A DNA stretch of 39,712 nucleotides, taken from the IMG/VR virus record IMGVR_UViG_2778261706_000022. One strand, written 5' to 3'. Both the position numbers and the translations under genes were made by a program. Positions 73 to 39,712 of the stretch are shown here, in pieces. The notes under the pieces were generated by a model. That model ran no database searches. It worked only from the letters and a program-made list of their open reading frames with translations, and was not told the DNA's origin. Within the stretch, counting starts at the first letter, position 1. Each line of letters opens with the position of its first letter. This DNA comes from a virus (taxonomy: Duplodnaviria; Heunggongvirae; Uroviricota; Caudoviricetes).

Positions 73-702
73 ATGAACACTTCACCGGTGCGAATGGATG
101 ATTTACCGCTTAACCGTTTTCACTGTCGAATTGCTGCGCTCACTTTCGGCGCACACCTGACCGACGGTTATGTTCTCGGCGTCATTGGTTACGCCATTAT
201 TCAACTTACGCCCGCCATGCAACTGACGCCGTTTATGGCGGGAATGATCGGCGGCTCGGCGCACCTTGGTTTGTTTCTTGGCAGCCTGGTTCTTGGGTGG
301 ATCTCCGACCATATTGGTCGGCAAAAAATCTTCACCTTCAGCTTTTTGCTGATTACGCTCGCTTCGTTCTTGCAATTTTTTGCCACCACGCCAGAGCATC
401 TTATTGGACTGCGCATTTTGATCGGCATTGGTCTGGGAGGCGATTACTCAGTAGGTCACACCTTGCTGGCTGAATTTTCCCCGCGCCGCCATCGCGGTGT
501 TTTGCTGGGCGCATTCAGCGTGGTGTGGACCGTAGGCTATGTGTTGGCAAGTATTGCCGGACATCACTTTATTTCCGAAAACCCGGAGGCCTGGCGCTGG
601 CTGCTGGCATCGGCAGCTCTGCCCGCGTTGTTGATTACGTTATTACGCTGGGGAACGCCAGAATCGCCACGCTGGCTACTTATAGCGCGGCGATTTTTTT
701 GA
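73..702 (+). pseudogene. MFS-family transporter gene, 5' portion only, interrupted by prophage insertion
   Basis: Translation has MFS/sugar-porter signatures (GxxxDxxGRQ-like loop, PESPRW motif). ATG at 73 follows a GAAGGGG Shine-Dalgarno. The frame ends in a TGA at 700-702 that coincides with the first prophage terminal repeat, and the protein is far shorter than a 12-TM transporter. Confidence 0.6.
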
Positions 703-764
703 TACCGATTTGCATTTCATTTGATACCGCTGAAAAACGCCGATACGCAACTTATTTGATACTA
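698..764. repeat. Prophage right-end terminal repeats (candidate transposase binding sites)
   Basis: TTTGATACCG at 698-707 and 720-729, TTTGATACTA at 755-764, a further GATAC at 742-746, and a GAAAAACGC motif at 732-740. Element probably begins with TG at 700-701. Confidence 0.45.
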
Positions 765-808: not shown

Positions 809-1546
809 TCATTCACTCTCTTTCAAACCAGTTTTAACTGTTTGTGGTTTTGGGTAAGGCTGGACTTTGAATAGCTTTGTGTTGAGGCGTTTTCTGGCCC
901 TCTTGTTCAGAAACCGGATGTAACGAAACTGTCGGAACTTATGAACACTGGCTCTGTCAATATTAGCCCTCAGATGTTCACCTCGTTGTCCGCCTCGTTT
1001 AATGGCATTCCTGCAAATCTCGTGATACCACTCGCCATCAAGTTCATAGAATATTGATTCATGGCTGCCTACATAATCAAAATTGCTTGCCTGATACACG
1101 ACACCAAGACAGCCACAACGCTCATCTGCAAACGACTGAACCCACTGTACCTGCGGATAAAGCTGCCTGATTAGCTTGAGCGCGTAACTGATTGCCCTTG
1201 ATTCGGAGTTTCTCGGCATACAGTCATGCAGCCATAGCCGGTTAAGCTCCATATATTCTCGGTTCTGCGTACCCGTTACGACGCGTGCACCACTGTTTGG
1301 GTTAAGGGCGTAACCCCATTGCATTACGCCAACAAGTTCCCGTTCTGAAAATATGCCCAGATGAAGGTAGGAGTTATTTACGAAACGGTGGCTGTAATGT
1401 TTATTGACGATGACCAGTCTGGCCAGCCAGCAACTTATTGTCTCAACCCGCAACTCACGGGAGCCATAACCAACGATATTGTCGTTATAGCGAATAAGTT
1501 CAGGCGTGCTGATGATTCGGGATGTGACTTGCTTTCTGTTCCCCAC
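809..1546 (-). CDS. mom: Mom-like DNA modification protein
   Basis: Terminal gene of the prophage, overlapped at its 5' end by a Com-like zinc-finger ORF as in Mu com-mom. Start is a GTG at 1546. Identity is by position and the com overlap, not by recalled Mom sequence. Confidence 0.6.
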
Positions 1547-2893: not shown

Positions 2894-2932
2894 TCCCGCC
2901 AGCCATATCATGACCGGCGGGATTTTTTTATT
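2894..2932 (+). terminator. Intrinsic terminator-like hairpin (TCCCGCC...GGCGGGA + T7)
   Basis: 7-bp GC-rich stem at 2894-2900 / 2916-2922 followed by TTTTTTT. Overlaps the esterase stop codon on the opposite strand. Confidence 0.45.
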
Positions 2933-4967
2933 CTGTTACCGCTTTTTTCACTTCCACCACAATGCTGTCAATCAGCACCGGGTAAGTTGCATTTTTTGTG
3001 ATATCCGTTACGCGGAGTTTGTCCACCGGGAAAGTTCCTACTGGTGACTGCGTCAGGGTAAACGCGGCACCATCCTGACCATCAATAACCGGAATAACCT
3101 GAAGGCTGTTATTTCCTGCAAAACGGAAGGCCAGCGTATGCCATTCATTATCAAATGCACCAAAGGTTCCCAGTTTCTGGTTATTTGTTGCCACTTTTGC
3201 ATTGTGGTACATCACATTCAGGTCTTTTGCGTCTGTCTGGATGTAGAACGATGCCAGCAGATTATTCCCTGCATCCCCTGTCAGGGTGACACCCTGCGGC
3301 AGAGAGGAAACCGGCCAGTAAAGCCCCATGACATACTGGTTTGCCACCAGGTCGCCAGGTACTTTAAAACGACAACTGATTAAACCACCATTTTTCAGCA
3401 GTTCAGCACCAGTACCGGCATCATGATCCAGATACCAAGATGATTTACCTGTTTCCTTGGTCAGTTTCATTGCCTTACCACCTGTGCCTCCTGCATCACT
3501 GATAATTTCAGCTTTACCGCCAGCCGGCTCCCAGCCCTGGGCTTTCAGATTTCCTTCTGACTCACTGACACGATAAGACAGCAGTGTTGTGGTTACTGCT
3601 TCAGTTTCTGAAGGTGACGGCACTGGTGCTTCAGTTTCAGAAGATGGAACATCGGCTTTTACTGTGGTTCGCCCCGCATGAGTCAGAACTGCCGTGGCCA
3701 GACGGTCGGAAATAATCCCACGACGTGCCCATGAACTGAAATGGCTGGCCCGGTCCGCAGATGTCCAGGTGGCGGCACTGTTACGCCACGTTGAGCCGTA
3801 ATAACCAATGGATTCAATATCCGGGTCTTCTGCCGGATTGTTGGTGGGTACATTCGCGTCATTTTCATCTGTCATTAATGGAACGAAATGAATGTTTTTA
3901 TCTGTTTTGTTTTTGTAGCCGCCATAGATTGCCTGGTATGCCGGTTCATTTTTCTGTTTCCAGAAATACGTGGTATCGCCACAAATCCACGGAACGCCAG
4001 CAGCACTGCCACCGGTACACTGTTCCGCCTGTTCAGCCAGGTCTGCGCGGAATTTTTCCACCATCGCCAGAAACAGCGCGGAATGCTCCGTCGGCTTCGC
4101 ATCAATATCAAACTCGCCCTGCATCCACACCACAGCAAGCAGGCGGTTTTTCGGGTTCTTCGCCAGTGCCGCTTTTGTCCGGCTGATTAAGTCCTTATAC
4201 AGCGGCTTATCCACACCCCAGCGGGCTGAGTCCTCTGAAGCACCCGTGCTGTCACTGTACGTGCCGTCAGCACCCGCCGTGAATGCAGAACCACCACGGC
4301 AGCAGGGAACCAGCAGAATCCCCGCATCTGCCGGAATAAACGGCAGCAGTTTTTTGGCAATGTGAAGCCCCTGACCCACGGTGCCATATTGCCCTTTAGC
4401 CACATCCGCTTTCGGGTGATTTTTTCCACTCATATCCTGCACATCATGCAGACAGTGGTCGGCCAGAATGATGTCGTTATACTGACAGGCTTTACCTCCC
4501 GGCGTGACTGTACTGCGACGGGCTAACTGCATAATACGCGGTTCGGGGCGGTCATATGTCTCCGGCAGTGGCAGACCTTCACCGTAAGCCATACCGTTTG
4601 ACTGACCAGCAAGAACCACCACGTAATACCAGGAAGGGGAGCTGGAAGCAGTTTCATTTCCTGACGGACGGGTATGTGTTTCAGCATTATCCCAGTCTGA
4701 CGGTTCAGCAGTACCGGCAACATCAGCACTTAACGGAATGACCGCACCAATACCCGCTCCGGTAATTTCCACACTCGGATCACCGGATACTGGCCTTACC
4801 CACAGGCAATCCCGTGTATTAAAACTGATGAGACAGTCAGCAAATGTCATTCCTCCTTTTGTTTCGGCCGGAGGAAAGGGAGCCTCAAGAAATGCCGCTG
4901 TACCACCGGAAACTTTAACAGTAAAGTTTCCGGGCATTGATGATAGTTGAACCCATTTGGACGTCAT
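2928..4967 (-). CDS. SASA/SGNH-type carbohydrate esterase with C-terminal lectin-like domain (NanS-p-like sialate O-acetylesterase candidate)
   Basis: 679-aa ORF with VLAGQSNGMAYGEG and WMQGEFD motifs typical of the sialate O-acetylesterase (SASA) family, a Pro/Ser/Thr/Glu linker (SETEAPVPSPSETEA), and a C-terminal beta-rich domain. No signal peptide. Confidence 0.6.
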   Translation of the reverse strand: MTSKWVQLSSMPGNFTVKVSGGTAAFLEAPFPPAETKGGMTFADCLISFNTRDCLWVRPVSGDPSVEITGAGIGAVIPLSADVAGTAEPSDWDNAETHTRPSGNETASSSPSWYYVVVLAGQSNGMAYGEGLPLPETYDRPEPRIMQLARRSTVTPGGKACQYNDIILADHCLHDVQDMSGKNHPKADVAKGQYGTVGQGLHIAKKLLPFIPADAGILLVPCCRGGSAFTAGADGTYSDSTGASEDSARWGVDKPLYKDLISRTKAALAKNPKNRLLAVVWMQGEFDIDAKPTEHSALFLAMVEKFRADLAEQAEQCTGGSAAGVPWICGDTTYFWKQKNEPAYQAIYGGYKNKTDKNIHFVPLMTDENDANVPTNNPAEDPDIESIGYYGSTWRNSAATWTSADRASHFSSWARRGIISDRLATAVLTHAGRTTVKADVPSSETEAPVPSPSETEAVTTTLLSYRVSESEGNLKAQGWEPAGGKAEIISDAGGTGGKAMKLTKETGKSSWYLDHDAGTGAELLKNGGLISCRFKVPGDLVANQYVMGLYWPVSSLPQGVTLTGDAGNNLLASFYIQTDAKDLNVMYHNAKVATNNQKLGTFGAFDNEWHTLAFRFAGNNSLQVIPVIDGQDGAAFTLTQSPVGTFPVDKLRVTDITKNATYPVLIDSIVVEVKKAVTE

Positions 4968-18498: not shown

Positions 18499-18899
18499 GC
18501 ACGGGCCTGTTCCGCTTTGTTACCGGTCTTTTTCCGGGGAGCATCCTGTCCGGCTTCGGCTTCGGCTTCGGCTTCGGCTTCGGCTTCGGCTTCGGCTTCG
18601 GCTTCGGCTTCGGCTTCGGCTAAATCTGTACCGGCCACTGCATGAACCACACCCGCCACGCTCCCCGCATCATCAGCAGACGTCTGTAGTATTCGCACAG
18701 TGAGGCATGGCTCCTCCTCCAGTCGGGCAAGCTGCTCCGGGGTGACCTCAACCTGCTGACGTCCACGCGTGAACAGGAACCCCGCACGACGAAACGCCGA
18801 ACGACTGCAACGCACTTCTGCCAGCACCGTGACAGAATTGTCACCACTGACCTGAAGACCTGAATCATCTGTTGCTGCCACAGTGTGATGTTCATTCAT
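18495..18899 (-). CDS. Hypothetical head-module protein containing an (Glu-Ala)12 repeat
   Basis: GGAGGG Shine-Dalgarno 6 nt before the ATG; stop overlaps the next gene's start. A perfect GCTTCG hexamer array encodes AEAEAE... Confidence 0.55.
   Translation of the reverse strand: MNEHHTVAATDDSGLQVSGDNSVTVLAEVRCSRSAFRRAGFLFTRGRQQVEVTPEQLARLEEEPCLTVRILQTSADDAGSVAGVVHAVAGTDLAEAEAEAEAEAEAEAEAEAEAEAGQDAPRKKTGNKAEQARA
18552..18620. repeat. Perfect tandem hexanucleotide repeat (GGCTTC/GCTTCG) x ~11.5
   Basis: Uninterrupted 69-bp array read directly from the sequence. In-frame in the minus-strand ORF, giving (EA)n. Confidence 0.95.
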
Positions 18900-29992: not shown

Positions 29993-30285
29993 GCTGTATC
30001 AACACTCCTGCGGATATGATAGGTATTATTTTCCCGATCGAGCTGAACCCGATACTCCGGAGGAATCACAAAAATATTAAAACCATCATCAGTTTTTATT
30101 CTTGAGTAGCATTCCCCCTTATGATATCTGGCCAGTGCATTAATCAGAGAAGTCGCAGCCTGCCCAATCAGGTATTTTTTATGAAAAATACTGATAACTT
30201 TCCGGCACAGCCATCGTGTAATGACGAATGCACCGAAAAAGGATGTGATATATAAATACCAGAACAACTGCGAACTACTGTCCAT
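29989..30285 (-). CDS. Hypothetical membrane protein (98 aa)
   Basis: N-terminal TM helix (LFWYLYITSFFGAFVIT). AT-rich early-region gene. Confidence 0.4.
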   Translation of the reverse strand: MDSSSQLFWYLYITSFFGAFVITRWLCRKVISIFHKKYLIGQAATSLINALARYHKGECYSRIKTDDGFNIFVIPPEYRVQLDRENNTYHIRRSVDTA

Positions 30286-30472
30286 TATCTTTCTCCTTAT
30301 TCAGTCTTCTGCGGCATTCGGCACAGTCATCAGGGCTTTCAAATGTATCCGGCTCGCGATTATGAGCCAGATATAACCACCGTCCACATATACTGATATT
30401 TTCGCCTGTTTTAAAAAAATGATGCTTCCTGGCCATTAGTGGCCGCGCCCATCCAGCGGGTAGACTATTCAT
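30275..30472 (-). CDS. Hypothetical small Cys-containing protein (65 aa)
   Basis: ICGRW...DDCAEC pattern suggests a zinc-binding fold. Coupled to neighbours. Confidence 0.35.
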   Translation of the reverse strand: MNSLPAGWARPLMARKHHFFKTGENISICGRWLYLAHNREPDTFESPDDCAECRRRLNKEKDNGQ

Positions 30473-30800
30473 TTGCTTTATCCTCCATGCTGGACAGAAT
30501 CATATGTATTAATGTCGGGCGTGGAGATATACGCATTTCATTAAGCGTCTGAAGGGCAGCAACAGCTGCCTGTTTATCGGTGCCTTTGGCAATTTCAGCA
30601 AGAGAATGCACAATCCATAATGGGCTTAACGCTACGGCTGAATGCAGAATCATGTCATCCATAATAATTTCTGGCATATCCCGTTTGTCACATTCTTTAT
30701 CCATAAAAGAAACGATTTTTTCTGCATCTTCCGGTTTCATGCCTCCGGCGATGAGAATTTTACGATATTCATAAGACGATCTTAATTCAATACTCATCAT
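30465..30800 (-). CDS. Hypothetical protein (111 aa)
   Basis: ORF in the early operon; no recognisable motif. Confidence 0.4.
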   Translation of the reverse strand: MMSIELRSSYEYRKILIAGGMKPEDAEKIVSFMDKECDKRDMPEIIMDDMILHSAVALSPLWIVHSLAEIAKGTDKQAAVAALQTLNEMRISPRPTLIHMILSSMEDKANE

Positions 30801-30812
30801 TCACCTGCCTGT

Positions 30813-31205
30813 TTAATCAGTTTCCAGTGCTTTGCTACGGGCAACAGCCTCACACTCAAAAAATACCGACTCCGGCACACGCTCCTTTAATTCACGAACA
30901 AGAAAATCATTAACGAGTTCATGACGTCTTATATTTCTTTCCTTTTCCTCCTGGCGCAATACAGCAAGGCGGTATTCAACAGTCCGGCGTTGTTTCTGAA
31001 AGACAGCCAGTGCTTTTCTGGCAGAGTTACGCAATGTATCATCGCCACAGGGTTCGTATTCAAGCTGAAATTTAATCTCTTCAATGGTTTCTTTTATTTT
31101 TGCCAGCAAGCTAAGACAGTCGCTGATTGTCTTCAGTTTTTCATTATCAATATAACTTCTCACGCATTCACCTCCCGTCATTCCGGTAAAGCTGAAATAT
31201 GGCAC
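30813..31205 (-). CDS. Hypothetical coiled-coil protein (130 aa)
   Basis: ORF in the early operon with heptad-like charged/hydrophobic periodicity. Confidence 0.4.
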   Translation of the reverse strand: MPYFSFTGMTGGECVRSYIDNEKLKTISDCLSLLAKIKETIEEIKFQLEYEPCGDDTLRNSARKALAVFQKQRRTVEYRLAVLRQEEKERNIRRHELVNDFLVRELKERVPESVFFECEAVARSKALETD

Positions 31206-31489
31206 CAGTGCGTCACCTGTCCGTCCTCATCTTCAAGGCAGGCTCCGGTTTCTTCATCAATAAAAAAGCCTTCATACCCCATATGGCCGATGCGCAGTTC
31301 CTGTTGGTCACCATACTGAACAATCAGCACGACAGCCTCCATATCAGGCGGGAAAGCATCATTCAGTGAATGCCAGGGATAACCGCGCAAATCCCCGAAA
31401 TAAACACCGGTCAGCGTTCCGCCACAGACCGGCATTCCGACGGCACACACAAGGGGTTCATCTGATTCAACAAATAATGTCGTTATCAT
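31178..31489 (-). CDS. Hypothetical protein (103 aa)
   Basis: ORF in the early operon; start may be an internal ATG. Confidence 0.4.
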   Translation of the reverse strand: MITTLFVESDEPLVCAVGMPVCGGTLTGVYFGDLRGYPWHSLNDAFPPDMEAVVLIVQYGDQQELRIGHMGYEGFFIDEETGACLEDEDGQVTHWCHISALPE

Positions 31490-32037
31490 GGCATTAATTC
31501 CCGTAATACAACATCTTCGGCAGTCCGACGACGGTGATAAATAAAACTCACCGTGCCCTCGGATAATTCAAATTTCTCGCCGATTTCCCTAAAGGTAAGA
31601 CGCCGTGGTGATTCAGCATCCCGTAATTCACGAATAAGACGAACATCATCGTCAGGTATGCGGGTGAAGGGCAGCAACTCTCCGTATTTTTTCATGCTTA
31701 CGCCAATATATCGCGCCCGATTGTGGACAGAATCCCGGTCTCGCCCCAGATATTCTCCTATTTGCTTACCGGTCATTGTTCTGGCATTTTTTCGGATAAA
31801 TTTATCTTCATCAGGTTTAAATCTGAGGCGTTTGCATTTGAGCAACTCCGGGTAAGTACCGCGTAATAAAACAATCCGGTTATGTACACCCCAGAAACTT
31901 CTTTTTATCCTGACAGCAATATCCTTAACCGGGGTGGATGGATAAAGCGCAATCAGCAGCGCATCTTCTTCAGGTGTCCATGCGCGAACATGAGCGGGTG
32001 CACGGCCTTTTCTCCCCATGGGTTGTAATATCATCAT
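31486..32037 (-). CDS. Hypothetical DNA-binding protein (183 aa)
   Basis: WTPEEDALLIALY (Myb/SANT-like) near the N-terminus and LTFREIGEKFELSEGTVSFI (HTH-like) near the C-terminus. Confidence 0.45.
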   Translation of the reverse strand: MMILQPMGRKGRAPAHVRAWTPEEDALLIALYPSTPVKDIAVRIKRSFWGVHNRIVLLRGTYPELLKCKRLRFKPDEDKFIRKNARTMTGKQIGEYLGRDRDSVHNRARYIGVSMKKYGELLPFTRIPDDDVRLIRELRDAESPRRLTFREIGEKFELSEGTVSFIYHRRRTAEDVVLRELMP

Positions 32038-32040
32038 GCA

Positions 32041-32556
32041 TCACCCCCTGACTCGCTTTTCAGCAGCATAAAACTCATCAGACAGAATTTCGGTCATTTT
32101 CTGATTTGCGGGTTTTACGCCGCACTCAAGGTAAATCACATCGTCAACGCAGAACCACTTCACAGGGCCAAACATGATTGCCGAGAAATCAATACCCAGC
32201 CAGAACAACAGTGCATCGGTTCTGGCATACGTGACGGGCGAATATTCACGCCACAGACTGTTAAGTTCGTCAGAGGCAACGCGCAGGGCTTTGGGAATAC
32301 GTGATGTGCGCGGTGTGCAGCTCCAGCCATTCGACGCAGTCGGTTTTCGCCATAAGTCGCGATGAAAAGGATATTTGTCATCCATAAAGCGCAGCCCTTT
32401 AAAACAAAAGCCACTGATACCGGATACAAATACCGACCGGCACGCAACATTCAGCACGGCCTCAAGGCGTTTTGCCTCATCCTTAACTTTCTGGCAGTCC
32501 TGCTGATATTTTTGCCACGCGGCCAGCGCGGAAGGGTTTGATGTTTTAAAGAACAT
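32041..32556 (-). CDS. Hypothetical protein (171 aa)
   Basis: ORF coupled to neighbours in the early operon. Confidence 0.45.
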   Translation of the reverse strand: MFFKTSNPSALAAWQKYQQDCQKVKDEAKRLEAVLNVACRSVFVSGISGFCFKGLRFMDDKYPFHRDLWRKPTASNGWSCTPRTSRIPKALRVASDELNSLWREYSPVTYARTDALLFWLGIDFSAIMFGPVKWFCVDDVIYLECGVKPANQKMTEILSDEFYAAEKRVRG

Positions 32557-33089
32557 TACGCCACCTCCGCAGATATCCCGGCAGGCGCGGCCGTCCGGTC
32601 AACAATCAGGTAACGCAGAACGCGCGAGGTGATATTCCAGCCGCTTAAACCGCAGATAATGACACCCAGGCGTATGTCGATATACGCCATCACAAACTGG
32701 GGCACGCCTTCTTTCATGGCCTGCTCATCAACTTCAGCCACCACATAAACGGTTTCACAGGTCAGAACGCCCTGAGCAAATTCCCACGCCATTGACGGAA
32801 TATCATGCCCCTCAATCCACGGCAGGGATTTTCTGAAGCTGCACCACTGAACATCATCAGCCGCACCTTCCTGGCTGCATTTGCGACGAACCGGCTGCAC
32901 CGGGCGGGGACGCGGAATATCATAAAAACCGTTACATTCCGTCAGCACCCCGGCATCGACCGCATCACGCAGAAAATAAACCATCGAGGATGGCGGCATA
33001 TTCATTTTTTCAGCCAGAATGCCGCAGGTCAGACGCCCGTAAATACTCAGCCAGTTTTTAACCCCTTCAAGCACTTTTGCACCAATCAT
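32556..33089 (-). CDS. Hypothetical protein (177 aa)
   Basis: ORF coupled to neighbours (ATG overlaps the upstream stop). Confidence 0.45.
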   Translation of the reverse strand: MIGAKVLEGVKNWLSIYGRLTCGILAEKMNMPPSSMVYFLRDAVDAGVLTECNGFYDIPRPRPVQPVRRKCSQEGAADDVQWCSFRKSLPWIEGHDIPSMAWEFAQGVLTCETVYVVAEVDEQAMKEGVPQFVMAYIDIRLGVIICGLSGWNITSRVLRYLIVDRTAAPAGISAEVA

Positions 33090-33092
33090 GAA

Positions 33093-33635
33093 TTATTCCT
33101 CCGTCAGCGCCACATATTCAGAATGTTTAATCTCCTGGCATTCTTCAGGAATACCCCCTTTTATTTCCCTGCCATAAGCGCCTACTTTAAACACCACGCA
33201 CAGGGCATCACGGGAGAGCGACGGGGTCCACCAGGAGTCCATGTTAAACATGGAGGGGATTCTCATTACCCCCAGCTTTTCACAGATCCAGACAAGGAAA
33301 TCAGGACGCTTTCTTAACTCGCGTTCAGCGGCTTCAATCATTGCGGCAATCGCCGGTCCTTCAGGGCATGACTCATCAGGTCTGGCAATAAAGCACGGTC
33401 CGTCCCCGATAAAAGCCACATCATCGCGCTTACGCCAGCCCGCAGGCAGAGCACCAGAAAAATAAAACTCACTGATTACGTCCATGGCAAACGGCTTTAA
33501 GCGCAATCCGGCAGCGCCTGTATTTTTCAGTAATGCCCGAAGAATACTGTTGCGTAGCGGTAAAACAGTCTGTTGATATTTGGTGAAATATTTATTTGTC
33601 TGCACACGGTCTAATTTGAAATAAAAATATGCCAT
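33093..33635 (-). CDS. Hypothetical protein (180 aa)
   Basis: First ORF downstream of gam in the early operon. Confidence 0.45.
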   Translation of the reverse strand: MAYFYFKLDRVQTNKYFTKYQQTVLPLRNSILRALLKNTGAAGLRLKPFAMDVISEFYFSGALPAGWRKRDDVAFIGDGPCFIARPDESCPEGPAIAAMIEAAERELRKRPDFLVWICEKLGVMRIPSMFNMDSWWTPSLSRDALCVVFKVGAYGREIKGGIPEECQEIKHSEYVALTEE

Positions 33636-33732
33636 ATATCCTGTTCCTTATTTTCAGTTTACAGGCGCAGGCAGTCCCCTGACGCGAGCGCCATACTTAA
33701 AACGATGTGATATTTAAAGATTTAATGCGGTG

Positions 33733-34263
33733 TTATTTATTCAGTCCGGCGTCCTGTTCAAAAGGCTCGACATAAAAACTTTCAGCGCCTTTATTCACCT
33801 TAATACCGGCAATGCCTTTCACTGCATCCGGCTCCGCTAGGACCGCTTCCTTGTTCACTTCCTCTTTCGTGCGGATGAATCGCTCAAGCCCCATACGGCG
33901 CAGCATTTCAATCACACCTTCCACATCACGGCTGACGCTGCATGATGGATTTCCCAGCCGCCATGACACTGTTCCGGTGGTCAGATTGGCTGTTTTGGTT
34001 TTGCCGCCGTTCGTCAGCTCATCGCGGTTGGTTTTGCACCAGTCCTGAATCCCCTTAAAAAGCACTTTGATTTCTTTTTTAAGGTTTTCAATCTGCGGCG
34101 TATAACGGGCGGTGATTTCTGCCACTTCATCATTCATCGCCGTTTCCAGCCGTAGCGCCTCTCGCTGAATATCGCCCAGGGTACGGATATCGCGGCTGAC
34201 TTCTTCGCGGGTCTGCGGTGCAGCCTCGGCTGCGGCCTTTAATTTTGTAACACGTTTAGCCAT
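33733..34263 (-). CDS. gam: Gam, host-nuclease inhibitor (Ku-like DNA-end binding protein)
   Basis: RLETAMNDEVAEITARY, NRDELTNGGKTKTANLTTGTVSWR and RFIRTKEEVNKEAVLAEP match my recollection of Mu Gam. Confidence 0.85.
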   Translation of the reverse strand: MAKRVTKLKAAAEAAPQTREEVSRDIRTLGDIQREALRLETAMNDEVAEITARYTPQIENLKKEIKVLFKGIQDWCKTNRDELTNGGKTKTANLTTGTVSWRLGNPSCSVSRDVEGVIEMLRRMGLERFIRTKEEVNKEAVLAEPDAVKGIAGIKVNKGAESFYVEPFEQDAGLNK

Positions 34264-34274
34264 TTTGTTTTTCC

Positions 34275-34568
34275 TTATTGCAGTGTGCCTGATGCTTTAT
34301 GCACGCGGTGGCGTTTAATGATGGCATCCGCCCCAAAAGCCTGTACAGATGCCTGAAATTCCGCTGAGAGAAACTGAATAATTTCAGGACTGTGATACTG
34401 GAGAATACTTGCATAAACGCCACAGAGTGACGTCGGCCTGTTATTCGTATCACGTTCTGTTTTTACATCCACACCAATCTTTTCATGCACTTCAACACAG
34501 TCATTGCCTGCCGGTTTTTCGTCATGCGAAACATGCTTAAATTCAAAAATAACGCGTACTTTGCTCAT
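34275..34568 (-). CDS. Hypothetical protein, paralogue B of a tandem pair
   Basis: N-terminus MSKVRVIFEFKH resembles MSKVVRIIFEYKE of the upstream gene. Internal ATG at 34568 chosen as start. Confidence 0.45.
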   Translation of the reverse strand: MSKVRVIFEFKHVSHDEKPAGNDCVEVHEKIGVDVKTERDTNNRPTSLCGVYASILQYHSPEIIQFLSAEFQASVQAFGADAIIKRHRVHKASGTLQ

Positions 34569-34572
34569 GGAA

Positions 34573-34845
34573 TTACCCCTGCTGATTAAATTCATTACCT
34601 TTAATAACCCCGGAACGCATGCTCATATCTTTCATGAGCGCACTGGCTTTCATTGCCACAAGTTCAGCAAAGTCTCTGCTTTCCGCGAGCATAACCACCC
34701 CAAAAATCATGGCGGGTCCATCACCTTTCTGCTTTATCCCGGTTGAACGTATGTCCAGACTTACCCCCATGCGCACTGTTCCATCAGCGTTTTTATGGAT
34801 AACGTGCTCCTTGTATTCGAAAATAATGCGTACGACTTTACTCAT
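34573..34845 (-). CDS. Hypothetical protein, paralogue A of a tandem pair
   Basis: 90-aa ORF sharing its N-terminal motif with the next gene. Confidence 0.45.
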   Translation of the reverse strand: MSKVVRIIFEYKEHVIHKNADGTVRMGVSLDIRSTGIKQKGDGPAMIFGVVMLAESRDFAELVAMKASALMKDMSMRSGVIKGNEFNQQG

Positions 34846-35123
34846 CCTCTGGTCCTCGTTCTGTTTGGATAACTGACCCGGCGTCTGACCTCACGGCAGA
34901 ACCGAATCATGGCATTAAAGGCTTCTTCCTCCGTCACCGCTTCCGGTATCCCCGGAACCAGTAACTGCTCCTGTTCATCACGTCCATGACGCGCCATAAC
35001 CTCAATCACATGCCGTACCGTGGCAGGCTTTCCGGCAACTATCGGCAATGCACCTTCCGGCAGGACGTAACCAAACTCAATAAGACCACTCGACCACGCC
35101 CATGCAATGAGATTTTTTTTCAC
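34842..35123 (-). CDS. Hypothetical early protein (93 aa)
   Basis: ORF in the B-proximal early region. Confidence 0.4.
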   Translation of the reverse strand: MKKNLIAWAWSSGLIEFGYVLPEGALPIVAGKPATVRHVIEVMARHGRDEQEQLLVPGIPEAVTEEEAFNAMIRFCREVRRRVSYPNRTRTRG

Positions 35124-35124
35124 C

Positions 35125-35391
35125 TCACACCTCCCAGTAAACCGTGCAGCCGCTGATGCGGGTGGCCTTCACACGGCGGCGCAGGCCGTTGGTCTGTATG
35201 GTGATTTCAATTTCACCGGTTCCCTGCACGTTGCCTACCGGCGGCGTGGTTTTCAGTGCAAAACGTTGCGGATAGCGCTTACTGCGTTCCAGTACCGCAC
35301 CGGCAAGTTCGGTCAGACGGCGCGCGCTGTTCAGGGAGTCGAATAAATTCATTTTGTTACCGCAGGATTGCATATTCATATAACACCTCAT
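35125..35391 (-). CDS. Hypothetical early protein (88 aa)
   Basis: ORF in the B-proximal early region; start uncertain. Confidence 0.35.
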   Translation of the reverse strand: MRCYMNMQSCGNKMNLFDSLNSARRLTELAGAVLERSKRYPQRFALKTTPPVGNVQGTGEIEITIQTNGLRRRVKATRISGCTVYWEV

Positions 35392-35619
35392 TTAGCTGAC
35401 TTGTTTCGCACCAACAGAACGGCATATTCCGCTGTAAACGTCTGTCGCACCTTCGCGATCAAGTCCGGCAGATATCACCATTCGTGTGCGGTCATTAAAT
35501 TCAAAAAGTAAATCGCCACATTCTTTATTTTCGGCCAGTGAAATCACCTTCACGTTATCGAAATTAACCAGGTAAAAGCGTCCGTAAATATCAGGAATAT
35601 TAAATACCGCCATAATCAC
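35392..35619 (-). CDS. Hypothetical early protein (75 aa)
   Basis: ORF immediately downstream of B (the Mu kil position). Confidence 0.4.
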   Translation of the reverse strand: MIMAVFNIPDIYGRFYLVNFDNVKVISLAENKECGDLLFEFNDRTRMVISAGLDREGATDVYSGICRSVGAKQVS

Positions 35620-36548
35620 ACCTGTGAGAGTAATTCAGGGTTGGTATAAACCTCTTTAAAGGCCGCATTAATATGTTTTTCTGTCAGCGCCGCGCCTTCA
35701 CCGCTGGCGGTGAGCCACGCCTGGTTAAGCGTATGTGTCAGAACGCGTAACGCTCCCGGCTTTTCAGCGATAGCCTGCATGACGGCCAGCTCGGCCTCAC
35801 CACTGATCCCCCACGCCCTGGCAATGGCCAGCACATCCGCCTTTTTGGCCTTGCGAAGTTGTTTTGTACGGGCAAGACGGCTGAACAGGCGCGATAAATC
35901 ATCAAAGGCGCGGCGTCCACCTTTAAACAATCCGCGCGGGTTACCAATAAGCACCATCCCGATCCCCGTGGCGTCCTGAATTGCCCGGAGTTGCTCCAGA
36001 CCGTCAATACCCAGATGATCCGCCTCATCCACAATCACCAGTCCACGCGTTCCCATCAGGCGACGGCGGATGGCGCGGGATAATGCCCCTTTGTTCGCGC
36101 GGGTGTAATCAATCCCCAGCGCATCGGCCAGCTCCAGCAGACACTCCGTGACGCTGGAGTGCGCGGGTGACAGGGTGATCATCCAGGTGTTTGGTTGCTC
36201 CTGGCAGTAATTACGGGCAGTGGCCGTTTTACCCACACCCGGTACGCCCACAATAACGTTAATACAGCCCATCAGACGAACCGCCTGAAACAGTGCGCGC
36301 AGCTCCTGGACTGTCTGCGTTTCCACAAACTGCGGCGGTTCCGGCAGTGCGCTTTGTTTATTCCAGTTTTCATACCAGGAACGCAGGGAAGCAGCCACAG
36401 CGGCGTTATCGCCTTTATATTTCCCCTTGCGGAAAGCCGATAATGTGCCGTCGGAAATTCCCGCCTCTCTGGCGATGGCATACTGCGTCAGTACGCCGCC
36501 ATCAATAAGTTCATCAATGGTCTTGATTACATCGTTAATATCAGTCAT
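35616..36548 (-). CDS. B: Transposition ATPase / target DNA activator B (AAA+)
   Basis: Walker A GVPGVGKT and Walker B LVIVDEADH motifs, with an N-terminal HTH-like region. Directly downstream of the transposase. Confidence 0.85.
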   Translation of the reverse strand: MTDINDVIKTIDELIDGGVLTQYAIAREAGISDGTLSAFRKGKYKGDNAAVAASLRSWYENWNKQSALPEPPQFVETQTVQELRALFQAVRLMGCINVIVGVPGVGKTATARNYCQEQPNTWMITLSPAHSSVTECLLELADALGIDYTRANKGALSRAIRRRLMGTRGLVIVDEADHLGIDGLEQLRAIQDATGIGMVLIGNPRGLFKGGRRAFDDLSRLFSRLARTKQLRKAKKADVLAIARAWGISGEAELAVMQAIAEKPGALRVLTHTLNQAWLTASGEGAALTEKHINAAFKEVYTNPELLSQV

Positions 36549-36586
36549 ATTATTAACCTCTCATTTGATACCTTGTTTAATCAAAT

Positions 36587-36620
36587 AACCTGAGTCGCCG
36601 CTCGGGTTATTTTTTTATTT
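36587..36620. other. Hairpin with flanking A/T runs between transposase and B genes
   Basis: AACCTGAG-tcgccg-CTCGGGTT stem followed on the plus strand by ATTTTTTTATTT; on the minus-strand RNA the hairpin is followed by AUUUGAUU. Confidence 0.4.
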
Positions 36621-38710
36621 CAGGCCAGCGGGTCATTTTCTTTTAATTTCGCTTCCAGCAACTGCAATCCCCGCTGGAAATTACGCTCGTATTCTTCATC
36701 AGGTTCATCGTCAGCGACCGGTTGCTGAACGGTCACCGTATTACCCACAGGGCGGTATATGTTTTCCAGCCAGGGCTCCTGCGGCTTGTGCTCCAGCACG
36801 TTGACAACCTCATCCTCGGCATCACGGATTTTTTCCTCTGCGCGTTTACGCATGCCTTTAAGGCGTTGCTGCTGTTTGTAGTATTCCGCGCTGACCGGGA
36901 AGGCTTCGCGTTTATTGCCGTCCCATACCGCCTCGCAAATCACGCTGCCATCCAGGCGACGTACGGTAATTCGTTCGGCATCATGAATGTCATAGCTGAT
37001 AAGCACCTTACGGCCATGCTCGTCACGCAGCTCGGGCGCGTAGTAAATATTATTCAGCCAGCGTATTTCACAGCGTCTTACAGGGCGTTCCACCATCGGC
37101 CGGAACATATCCCGCAGCTCAACATCGGACAGCCATTCAATTTCCGTGTCCTCTTCCGCCAGGCGTTTTTTTCTGAACTCCGCCGGGCTGTAATGCTTGC
37201 CGTTCGGCTTCACCGGTAATTCATCGTGCGGCCGGTTGTTGTACCACTCAACACCGTCACGAATGGCATCAATCAGTTCAGACCAGGACGGTAAATCACG
37301 CATCGCTGACTGCTGCCGGGCGTTCAGCCGTTTGCCCTGTTGCAGGGCAGTAAATGCCGAGCGTAAATCGCGGTTGGTTTTGCGTAACGTCTCGCGATCT
37401 GCACCTTTCCCGAAATAGGTGCGGTATTTACGGGCTATGCGCATCGGTAATGTGCGGTTAAGCCGTTCGATAATGCCTCGTCCCTGCGGATTACCGGCAA
37501 TCCCGGTCGGGTGATTAATCCCCAGTCGCGGCAGTATCCCCACAACCTCCTTATCCAGGATGTCGGCGGTTTCCCCGGAGCCGTTATCCGAGTAATACAG
37601 AAACGGTTTGCCGTGATGGCGAATGCCGTGCTGTATGGCACCGGCTACGGCGAAAACATTTTCAGCCAGGTCAAGGCTCCAGCCCACCACAAAGCGCGTG
37701 CCACCGTCGATAACAAAGGTCACTTCCGGTGCAAATGGCCGACCGTGAACCGGGTGTGCGCATTTCAGCTTCATGCCGTGACCGTCACCAATCCAGACAT
37801 AATTCACCGGCATTCTGGACCAGTCGCGGCGCGTGAATCCCTCAAGCTGGCGGTATTCACTGCCGGTCACCCGGCCTTTTTGTTTCACCACTTCCGGCAG
37901 TTTCTTCATTGCGCGGCGAATGGTGTCATAAGACGGCATGATATCGAGCATATAAGGCTCATTAGCGTGCCGGTGCTGCCATTCAGCGACAAAATCCTCG
38001 TAAGCCTCGGTCATTGGTCGGCCGTTTGACTGGCGATACTGCGCCAGAAATTCGGGCAGCCAGTTAATATCTTCGGCTTTTATTTCCTGGCGCTTACCCG
38101 GTGCCAGTAAAAGCAGGCGTTCAGCGGCGTTCTGCGCCTTGTTAAAGGCCGCAATCCAGCGTTTCAGCGTGATTTCACTTAACGCGCGGCTGTTTCCCTT
38201 TTTGGCGTTCGCCGTCTCAACCATTGCCACAATGCGCTCGTCCAGCTGCGAACGTGCCAGGTTGTCAACGATAAACCGGATAGCCTTCGCACAGCTGAAA
38301 CCAGGTTGTTGCGCGACTTTCAGAACTTCGCTGACGATCGCGATTCGTGCATCAGCCACCTGGCGCTGGTTTTCAGTCAGGGCATTAAGGCGTTCGACCA
38401 TCAGTTGTGGTGATCCGCGATATGCCTCCACCGCATCAACCACGGCAGGCGAGCGTCTGGCCTTTGTCACCACTGGAGCCGGTGATTCATCGACTTTTTG
38501 AGTCATCAGTTGCAGGGCGTAGCGTTCACGTAATGCCTGCTGCGTCACTTCAGGTAAACAGTCGATGCTGTATTCAGTTGCTTTAGAGCCTGAGCGACGA
38601 CGGGAACAACAGCTTTTCCCTTGTACGTAACGTTGTAATGCCTGGCGAATACCTTTTGTTGTAGCAGGCATTCCGGGCGCGCCAATCAGTTCTTTTGCAA
38701 TGACATACAT
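36620..38710 (-). CDS. A: DDE transposase (MuA-like)
   Basis: 696-aa ORF between ner and B. Central region (WIGDGHGMKLK..., GIPE-like context) resembles the MuA catalytic core. Confidence 0.85.
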   Translation of the reverse strand: MYVIAKELIGAPGMPATTKGIRQALQRYVQGKSCCSRRRSGSKATEYSIDCLPEVTQQALRERYALQLMTQKVDESPAPVVTKARRSPAVVDAVEAYRGSPQLMVERLNALTENQRQVADARIAIVSEVLKVAQQPGFSCAKAIRFIVDNLARSQLDERIVAMVETANAKKGNSRALSEITLKRWIAAFNKAQNAAERLLLLAPGKRQEIKAEDINWLPEFLAQYRQSNGRPMTEAYEDFVAEWQHRHANEPYMLDIMPSYDTIRRAMKKLPEVVKQKGRVTGSEYRQLEGFTRRDWSRMPVNYVWIGDGHGMKLKCAHPVHGRPFAPEVTFVIDGGTRFVVGWSLDLAENVFAVAGAIQHGIRHHGKPFLYYSDNGSGETADILDKEVVGILPRLGINHPTGIAGNPQGRGIIERLNRTLPMRIARKYRTYFGKGADRETLRKTNRDLRSAFTALQQGKRLNARQQSAMRDLPSWSELIDAIRDGVEWYNNRPHDELPVKPNGKHYSPAEFRKKRLAEEDTEIEWLSDVELRDMFRPMVERPVRRCEIRWLNNIYYAPELRDEHGRKVLISYDIHDAERITVRRLDGSVICEAVWDGNKREAFPVSAEYYKQQQRLKGMRKRAEEKIRDAEDEVVNVLEHKPQEPWLENIYRPVGNTVTVQQPVADDEPDEEYERNFQRGLQLLEAKLKENDPLA

Positions 38711-38711
38711 A

Positions 38712-38960
38712 TCATGACGCCTTTCTCATATAGCTCTTAACCTGGTATCGACTGGGCCAGATTTCTTCAGGCGATACCCCAAGAGCATCAGCAATTATTT
38801 GCTGATACGGTCGGCAAGGAGTACGTAATACGCTTTTCAGCGAATCCCTGCTGTAACCAGCCTTTAAAGATAAAGAGCGCAGTGATAAGCCAGCCATGTG
38901 TAAGCGCGCCTTGATGATTTCAGGCGGCCAATCGTGATCTGAAACTTCTCTTCTACTCAT
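38712..38960 (-). CDS. ner: Ner-like DNA-binding regulator
   Basis: 82-aa protein with HMAGLSLRSLSLKAGYS...QQIIADALGVSPEEIWPSRY, matching the Ner/Nlp family. Confidence 0.8.
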   Translation of the reverse strand: MSRREVSDHDWPPEIIKARLHMAGLSLRSLSLKAGYSRDSLKSVLRTPCRPYQQIIADALGVSPEEIWPSRYQVKSYMRKAS

Positions 38961-39127
38961 ACTTCCTCTATTCTAAAAAGTTACCCGCGCGGATATTCGT
39001 GCGGATATCTGTACGGGTAAATAATAGAACAAACAAAAGAACCAAATCAAGGTATTTTGTTCTTTTTATTCTTTGCGGTGTTTTTGTTATTAATATCAAT
39101 AAGATAAATACAAAGGAACCTGAGAGC
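38961..39127. promoter_or_regulatory. Divergent c / ner control region (candidate operators and transposition enhancer)
   Basis: 167-bp AT-rich gap between divergent repressor and ner genes. Contains the 40-bp palindrome TTACCCG-CGCGGATATTCGTGCGGATAT-CTGTA-CGGGTAA at 38981-39020 with an internal GCGGATAT direct repeat. Confidence 0.5.
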
Positions 39128-39712
39128 ATGAACATGAAAAACAGTTCTTTTCTCGACGAAGGAAAAGAACCAGTGATCGAACGGATTTTTCGTCTTGCAG
39201 AGCGTTACAAATCGAGAAGTGAGGCGGCTAGAGCATGGGGAATAAACGTTCAGACATTGCAGAACTACTACAAAAGGAGAAACAATCAGCCGCCACCACA
39301 ACCAAGAAAGCACCATCTCCAGAACATTGCAGAAAGAGAACATGTATCTATGGAGTGGCTAGTCAATGGTTATGGTGATGAGCCAAGCATGAAAAAAGAA
39401 CCAATTGAACAAACAAAAAGAACAAAAAAACAAAGAATTGATGATAGTGATTCCATCATCATGAGGGCGTGGGACTCGCTAACTTCATCTGAACAAGAGA
39501 TTTTGTCCAACTTATTGATCAGAAAAGGGGCCGAACTACTAACCGTTTTGCTTGATACAGATATTCAAAAACTGCACTCATTGAGCGGAGTCAAAAGAGC
39601 ACTAGCATTGAGTCTACAAGAGTTACCCGATGATACTGTAAGAGAGATTTATGAAGAATGTGAAGCTAAGGTTAATCATTTAAATGTAACCCAGAAAAAG
39701 GCTGGTGCGTAA
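39128..39712 (+). CDS. Repressor c-like protein
   Basis: Divergent from ner. ATG at 39128 is preceded by AAAGGAA. 194-aa protein with an N-terminal HTH-like segment (SRSEAARAWGINVQTLQNY). Low GC. Confidence 0.6.
   Translation: MNMKNSSFLDEGKEPVIERIFRLAERYKSRSEAARAWGINVQTLQNYYKRRNNQPPPQPRKHHLQNIAEREHVSMEWLVNGYGDEPSMKKEPIEQTKRTKKQRIDDSDSIIMRAWDSLTSSEQEILSNLLIRKGAELLTVLLDTDIQKLHSLSGVKRALALSLQELPDDTVREIYEECEAKVNHLNVTQKKAGA

Follow-up and report, generated by a model that had tools for sequence, protein, structure and literature searches.

Junctions, target-site duplication and terminal repeats of an Sp18-type Mu-like prophage inserted in the Escherichia coli gene ygcS

The window analyzed here, a stretch of 39,712 nucleotides (IMG/VR record IMGVR_UViG_2778261706_000022), begins in ygcS, a gene encoding an MFS/sugar-porter transporter. 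The 5' part of ygcS occupies 73..680 on the plus strand (codons 1-202 and the first 2 nt of codon 203), and positions 1-680 of the window are 100% identical to ygcS of O157:H7 genomes. From position 681 to the end of the window at 39712 lies an Sp18-type Mu-like transposable prophage in minus orientation, with its right (mom) end first. The window ends 272 bp short of the left terminus, and the total length of the prophage is ~39,304 bp. It is 98-99% identical to Sp18 of strain Sakai and 99.94-99.99% identical to the copies in FDAARGOS_293, 2014C-3011 and FRIK944.

The last gene before the right end is the DNA modification gene mom (809..1546, minus strand; Pfam Mom, 4e-77), which was assigned also from the annotation of identical copies. 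Beyond mom, the prophage carries com, a gene for a gin-type invertase and then tail, head and early genes of the Mu type. A 679-aa cargo gene (2928-4967, minus strand), whose product contains SASA (sialate O-acetylesterase-like) and DUF6645 domains, lies in the interval from mom to gin; nothing comparable is present there in Mu, and strain 2014C-3011 has a DUF6645-domain gene annotated directly beyond its prophage. A perfect tandem array of the hexanucleotide CGGCTT (11.8 copies, 18551-18621) is present in a gene for an 'HI1506-related protein', and its copy number varies among near-identical copies of the prophage (annotated CDS of 369-429 nt), being the sole alignment gap between them. As well, RefSeq records a 'tRNA-OTHER' inside the Sp18-type copy of strain E2855 (L004, 21301-21380), and an ARAGORN scan of the whole window found no tRNA.

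The early region possesses both transposition genes. The 696-aa transposase A, a Mu-type DDE enzyme by its domains, is encoded at 36620..38710 on the minus strand, and its Pfam matches to Mu-transpos_C (1.5e-17) and HTH_Tnp_Mu_1 (6.9e-6) are both above the cut-offs. A gene for a MuB-like AAA ATPase (transposition protein B) is found at 35616..36548 on the same strand, according to the annotation of identical copies and a match of its product to PF09077 (Phage-MuB_C). The repressor position is occupied by a gene for a 194-aa product (39128..39712, plus strand), within which the window ends. Identical copies of this gene exist in 90 other complete genomes, and its product gives only weak HTH matches in Pfam.

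Sakai Sp18, which resides in sorM of an O157:H7 strain, is 98-99% identical to the window over ~37 kb (681-29999 and 31480-39058) and has a matching order of genes (among them mom/com, the gin invertase, head and tail genes and the A/B transposition genes). Both phages have identical termini (TGTAACCAGGTG... and ...CGCCGCGCTATA), and the Sakai copy is flanked by a 4-bp duplication, TTTA. They differ in the insertion site (sorM versus ygcS) and in the gene at the repressor position, which encodes 176 aa in Sakai and 194 aa here. The match to Sakai stops at ~39058-39121 in BLAST, and the 194-aa gene has no homology to the Sakai 176-aa repressor; its immunity type is thus unlike that of Sakai Sp18, and the Sp18 group comprises two immunity types (39059-39712 of the window and beyond). 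The segment at ~30000-31480 is likewise replaced or diverged in the window copy, being alignable with Sakai Sp18 at 95.6% over 636 bp and unaligned in the rest, a pattern which indicates a probable module replacement in the semi-essential region. According to previous studies, Sp18 is intact and packaged and does not circularize (PMC2669165), and strain-specific integration sites were reported for its relatives (PMC7430833).

The right junction was located by comparison of the window with the uninterrupted allele, as the initial annotation had advised. Empty ygcS is present in ~5,100 complete E. coli genomes, and the identity between the empty allele (L001) and the window ends at base 680. Native ygcS reads ...CGCTGGCTACT|GCGCCAGGGG, and the sequence of the window is ...CGCTGGCTACT|TATAGCGCGG; that is, after ...GGCTACT the empty allele goes on with GCGCCAGGGG, and the right junction is ...GGCTACT|TATAGC in place of the native target site GGCTACTGCGCC. 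The phage right end begins at window base 681 (TATAGCGCGGCG...), and 681-2300 is 100% identical from its first base in more than 100 genomes at unrelated loci. Since host identity stops at 680 and the shared phage sequence starts at 681, the junction lies at 680|681. The right end is carried by 233 of 5,426 genomes at various loci. Among its neighbors there are sorM (in Sakai, where the element is annotated as "prophage Sp18, Mu-like phage"), ureC, hyfE, dcuC and several genes of prophages. Junctions were read for 13 insertions, namely this one and 12 further ones, in all of which the flanks differ and the element end is constant. Read inward, the right end is TATAGCGCGGCGATTTTTTTGATACC, with TA as its terminal dinucleotide. 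These observations correct the position of the ends of the present phage.

The transporter frame runs without interruption into the prophage, as had been noticed from the sequence, and gives a fusion ORF from ATG 73 to TGA 700-702, with a longer version from ATG 1. The ORF at 73-702 comprises 209 aa, consisting of 203 host residues and six residues from the phage (IARRFF). Its phage-encoded tail (681..702, plus strand) supplies the T of codon 203, which remains Leu across the junction, and then I-A-R-R-F-F and the stop. The stop codon belongs to the phage and occupies nt 20-22 inward from the terminus. Of the three frames that enter the right end, two are closed in the first 22 nt; the first stops lie at nt 3 (TAG, frame 3), at nt 20 (TGA, frame 2, the one used here) and at nt 109 (frame 1).

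The product of the fusion ORF matches Pfam Sugar_tr (7e-33) and MFS_1 and covers only positions 9-202 of the 452-position Sugar_tr profile, the N-terminal half. A full 12-helix MFS fold is not contained in this single reading frame, the 3' part lying beyond the prophage and being frameshifted. The 233-aa version starting at ATG 1 is recorded on NCBI contig NHWJ01000001.1 and in several sequencing-run assemblies, while an exact look-up of the 209-aa product starting at 73 returned no record, ATG 1 being the start chosen by the gene caller. The junction-spanning sequence was absent from the 5,426 complete genomes, and the ygcS'-phage junction was seen in several assemblies of one clone.

A truncated transporter of ~210 aa had been proposed for the lysogen. 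The predicted 209-aa ORF does exist and may give such a product. In this lineage, ygcS was probably a pseudogene already before the phage arrived. O157-type ygcS is annotated as "frameshifted" in strain PV15-279, and its reading frame is lost near codon 335, which lies outside the window, ~130 codons past the site of insertion (L001 1573-2909; L020 3001-3492). A truncated 370-aa product of ygcS has been deposited from several E. coli draft genomes, and the 3' ygcS fragment on the source contig ends at the same premature stop in an exact match. With ygcS frameshifted beforehand, little function would have been lost through the insertion, and the 209-aa predicted ORF would represent only the N-terminal half of a transporter which needs both halves.

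The left junction lies beyond the window on the source contig NHWJ01000001.1 (GCA_002194875.1; 396,894 bp; L020). It was reached through the predicted products of the 3' ygcS remnant, one of which, a 163-aa fragment with a GTG start, is present in the protein collection and led to this contig. Neither of the predicted junction-spanning ORFs, for a 5-bp (MIHLVTLLRQ...) or a 4-bp (MVSNDSPGYILRQ...) duplication, was in the protein collection, and a left junction scan of genome contigs with any duplication length from 0 to 8 gave no match, the source genome not being a species representative. On the source contig, the left junction reads ...GGTTACA|TACTGCGCC, and the left end runs into the host as ...CACCTGGTTACA|TACTGCGCCAGGGGCG. 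The rest of the transporter gene, whose presence beyond the left end had been predicted, is therefore found on this contig as 3' ygcS, and with both junctions read and the empty allele known, the interruption of an MFS transporter gene by a Mu-type prophage is established.

Comparison of the two junctions with the native site reveals a short target-site duplication. Native ygcS reads GGC-TACT-GCG, whereas the lysogen reads GGC-TACT-[39,304-bp prophage]-TACT-GCG; the right-hand copy of TACT lies at 677..680 of the window. The duplication had been expected to be 5 bp and is 4 bp. A look-up of the repressor gave 10 other insertion sites but did not return the source, and these sites were used solely as extra left junctions, and the insertion in 2013C-3250, being the same as that in E2855, was left out of the independent count. 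A length of exactly 4 bp was observed in 11 of the 13 independent insertions (TACT, TTTA, CGAA, TGAT, TGCG, TAAT, CCTG, AACC, TGAC, GATG and AGAG). The two exceptions, both checked against the empty site, are RM10386 (L024/L025), which has a clean 5-bp duplication, AGACG, and FRIK944 (L007, in ureC), which has TTCA and, at the right junction, one additional A. It is possible that the stagger is flexible and not strictly fixed, or that these two junctions were altered by later mutation or assembly error since insertion. In GenBank records LC727881.1 and LC727895.1, 4-bp repeat regions are annotated as 'duplication due to insertion of Mu_JNE...'. Our literature search found no paper discussing the 4-bp duplication, none joining ygcS with a Mu-like phage and none for the JNE082796 records, and the papers on SfMu and Sp18 do not describe the ends or the duplication.

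Transposition of Mu gives a 5-bp duplication. For the D3112-like phage Ab30, a 'five base-pairs shift' was reported (PMC5977238). Following these precedents, the duplication of the present phage might truly be the canonical 5 bp, with one terminal base wrongly given to the phage; the perfect 5-bp repeat of RM10386 against its empty site would agree with such an assignment, as would the C that in eight of the 13 insertions directly adjoins the 4-bp repeat, outside it, on the side of the right flank. However, every 5-bp model in ygcS needs a mismatch (C versus A, or G versus T), and the same holds for 10 other insertions. Moreover, such a model must transfer to the host either the T at 681 or the final A of GGTTACA, both of which are invariant beside variable flanks and therefore belong to the element, and the GenBank depositors independently annotated 4 bp. 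A true length of 5 bp is thus very improbable. Models in which either terminus is shifted by one base were tried and rejected for their systematic mismatch to the known empty sites.

In 8/13 insertions, the host base directly 5' to the point of left-end joining is C, and no such bias is observed on the other side. This may reflect an asymmetric target preference on the side where the left end is joined.

The termini of the prophage are bordered by short repeats, which had been pointed out from the sequence and are indeed present. At the right end, the core TTTGATACC occurs at 698..706 (R1, nt 18-26 from the terminus) and, 22 bp after R1, at 720..728 (R2), and the variant TTTGATACT occurs at 755..763 (R3), 35 bp after R2 in the same orientation; all three lie on the plus strand and are putative transposase-binding sites. 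Their consensus TTTGATACY has five matches in the window against 0.46 expected, and none of 100 shuffles reached five. Read inward, the cores lie at nt 18-26, 40-48 and 75-83 of the right end and at nt 18-26, 113-121 and 165-173 of the left end, so that there are three per end, all six in one orientation.

The stop codon of the fusion ORF had been read as a product of the terminal TG of the element, which was accordingly placed at ~700. If so, the end would be the TG of TGA 700-702, with 681-699 as host sequence or junk, and the coincidence of this TGA with the start of the first TTTGATACC repeat, together with the TG with which both Mu ends (L and R) start, could be taken to favor that placement. 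The empty ygcS allele, however, departs from the window at 681 and not at 700; bases 681-699 (TATAGCGCGGCGATTTTTT) are identical in 12 other insertions, where they adjoin unrelated flanks; and the core recurs in the left end at an identical offset (18-26) from the terminus there. The start proposed before was thus misplaced by 20 bases, as all 13 insertions agree: the element ends in TA, the TGA falls inside the phage (within R1), and an end at 700 has a negligible probability. Equally negligible is site-specific (integrase/att) recombination at a preferred site in ygcS instead of transposition, for which a second Sp18-type prophage of the other immunity type ~100 bp upstream in the same gene might speak, since the 13 insertions lie in 13 unrelated sequences with no common core, each with its own short duplication, the phage has no integrase and only Mu-type A and B genes, and Sp18 forms no circles (PMC2669165).

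The end repeats differ from those of Mu, as had been remarked, the core being TTTGATACY here and RCGAAAR (within a 22-bp consensus) in Mu. We infer that the TTTGATACY cores are binding sites for the phage's own transposase. This transposase is 22% identical to MuA, 79% to that of Yersinia phage vB_YpM_5, 48% to that of VW-6B (Pseudomonas), 44% to that of SuMu (Haemophilus) and ~30% to those of D3112-type phages. A transposase-end specificity distinct from that of Mu, which the initial annotation had suggested, is plausible and well supported by the sequence comparison, because the transposase is just 22% identical to MuA; the cores also stand in the same register at both ends, and their spacing is kept in a relative whose transposase is 56% identical.

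By transposase identity, the nearest sequenced free phages are Yersinia vB_YpM_5/6, vB_YpM_Tongde and Klebsiella Kp4866-3 (79%, 56% and 57%, respectively). The right end of Tongde carries the same TTTGATACC, TTTGATACC and TTTGATACT cores, again spaced by 22 bp and 35 bp, and in the same register it starts with TAAAGCGCGC, which is TA again. The Yersinia and Klebsiella relatives differ from the present phage in their hosts, and the spacers of Tongde have diverged.

In its overall plan, the prophage is similar to Mu. Both are transposable myoviruses in which the early region (c-ner-A-B) occupies the left end and mom/com and gin the right end, both carry Mu-transpos_C and a Mu DNA-binding domain in A, and both insert at essentially random sites with a short duplication. 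The cores of Mu lie at 21-27, 126-132 and 166-172 of the L end and at 21-27 and 43-49 of the R end, with an inverted copy at 56-62; both phages thus have three cores per end at similar offsets, with a terminal site at each end and 22 bp between R1 and R2. In contrast, R3 is inverted at 56-62 in Mu and direct at 75-83 here, the right terminus is TG (CA-3') in Mu and TA here, and the duplication is 5 bp in Mu and mostly 4 bp here. Similarity to Mu at the DNA level is confined to mom (~71%).

CA-3' termini are usually required by Mu-family and retroviral-type transposases. The left end of the prophage, TGTAACC, conforms to the pattern 5'-TG...CA-3', while the right end, which reads TATAGCG inward (that is, ...CTATA-3') and is invariant in 13 copies, does not. 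Given the usual CA-3', this TA-3' right end counts against a reading of the event as strand transfer by a Mu-type transposase.

Taken together, we consider it nearly certain that a Mu-like phage of the Sp18 group integrated in ygcS by transposition, with its right end at 681 and a 4-bp duplication. During integration, strand transfer by the DDE transposase would join the two phage 3' ends to the ygcS strands 4 nt apart, and subsequent gap repair would leave TACT on either side of the ~39.3-kb prophage; we infer that this 4-nt stagger is the chemical cause of the duplication. By chance, the ygcS frame reads 19 nt into the phage end before it encounters the TGA inside R1.

A broader proposal, to which we give somewhat less than an even chance, is that the Sp18 group and its relatives, such as Tongde, represent a Mu-family system with altered active-site geometry, which would be reflected in the TA-3' right end in place of the near-universal CA-3', a mostly 4-nt and occasionally 5-nt stagger, the TTTGATACY core and the C bias (8/13). 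No paper describing the TA-3' end, the 4-nt stagger, the TTTGATACY core or the C bias was found, and the 4-bp duplication is noted in the two GenBank annotations.

The event itself is genuine, yet it is an ordinary insertion of a phage already known; mildly unusual for a Mu-family system are only its right terminus (TA), its duplication of 4 bp (occasionally 5 bp) and its distinct end motif. The prophage is a well-documented and active Mu-like element of Shiga-toxin-producing E. coli, and a further insertion of it has little meaning for biology at large. The ygcS junction can be used as a strain or lineage marker, and for transposition specialists the Sp18 transposase is a possible system for comparison with MuA with respect to these three features.

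A second, independent Sp18-type insertion in ygcS was found ~100 bp upstream, at about window position 580 (L021, SRR11168110_3; left flank AAACCCGGAGGCC...). This copy carries a Sakai-type repressor, and ygcS, a small gene, has thus been struck twice in different isolates.

Finally, many copies of the phage have landed in other prophages, where they interrupt a DUF1367 gene, a portal gene or a head-tail connector gene of the resident element or are contained in the Stx1a/Stx2c phage records LC727895.1 and LC727881.1; this applies to five of the 13 insertions with resolved junctions. Further copies occupy prophage genes for tail protein L, host specificity protein J and HK97 gp10. Inactivation of resident prophages by this phage may thus be frequent, or insertions at these places may just be tolerated.
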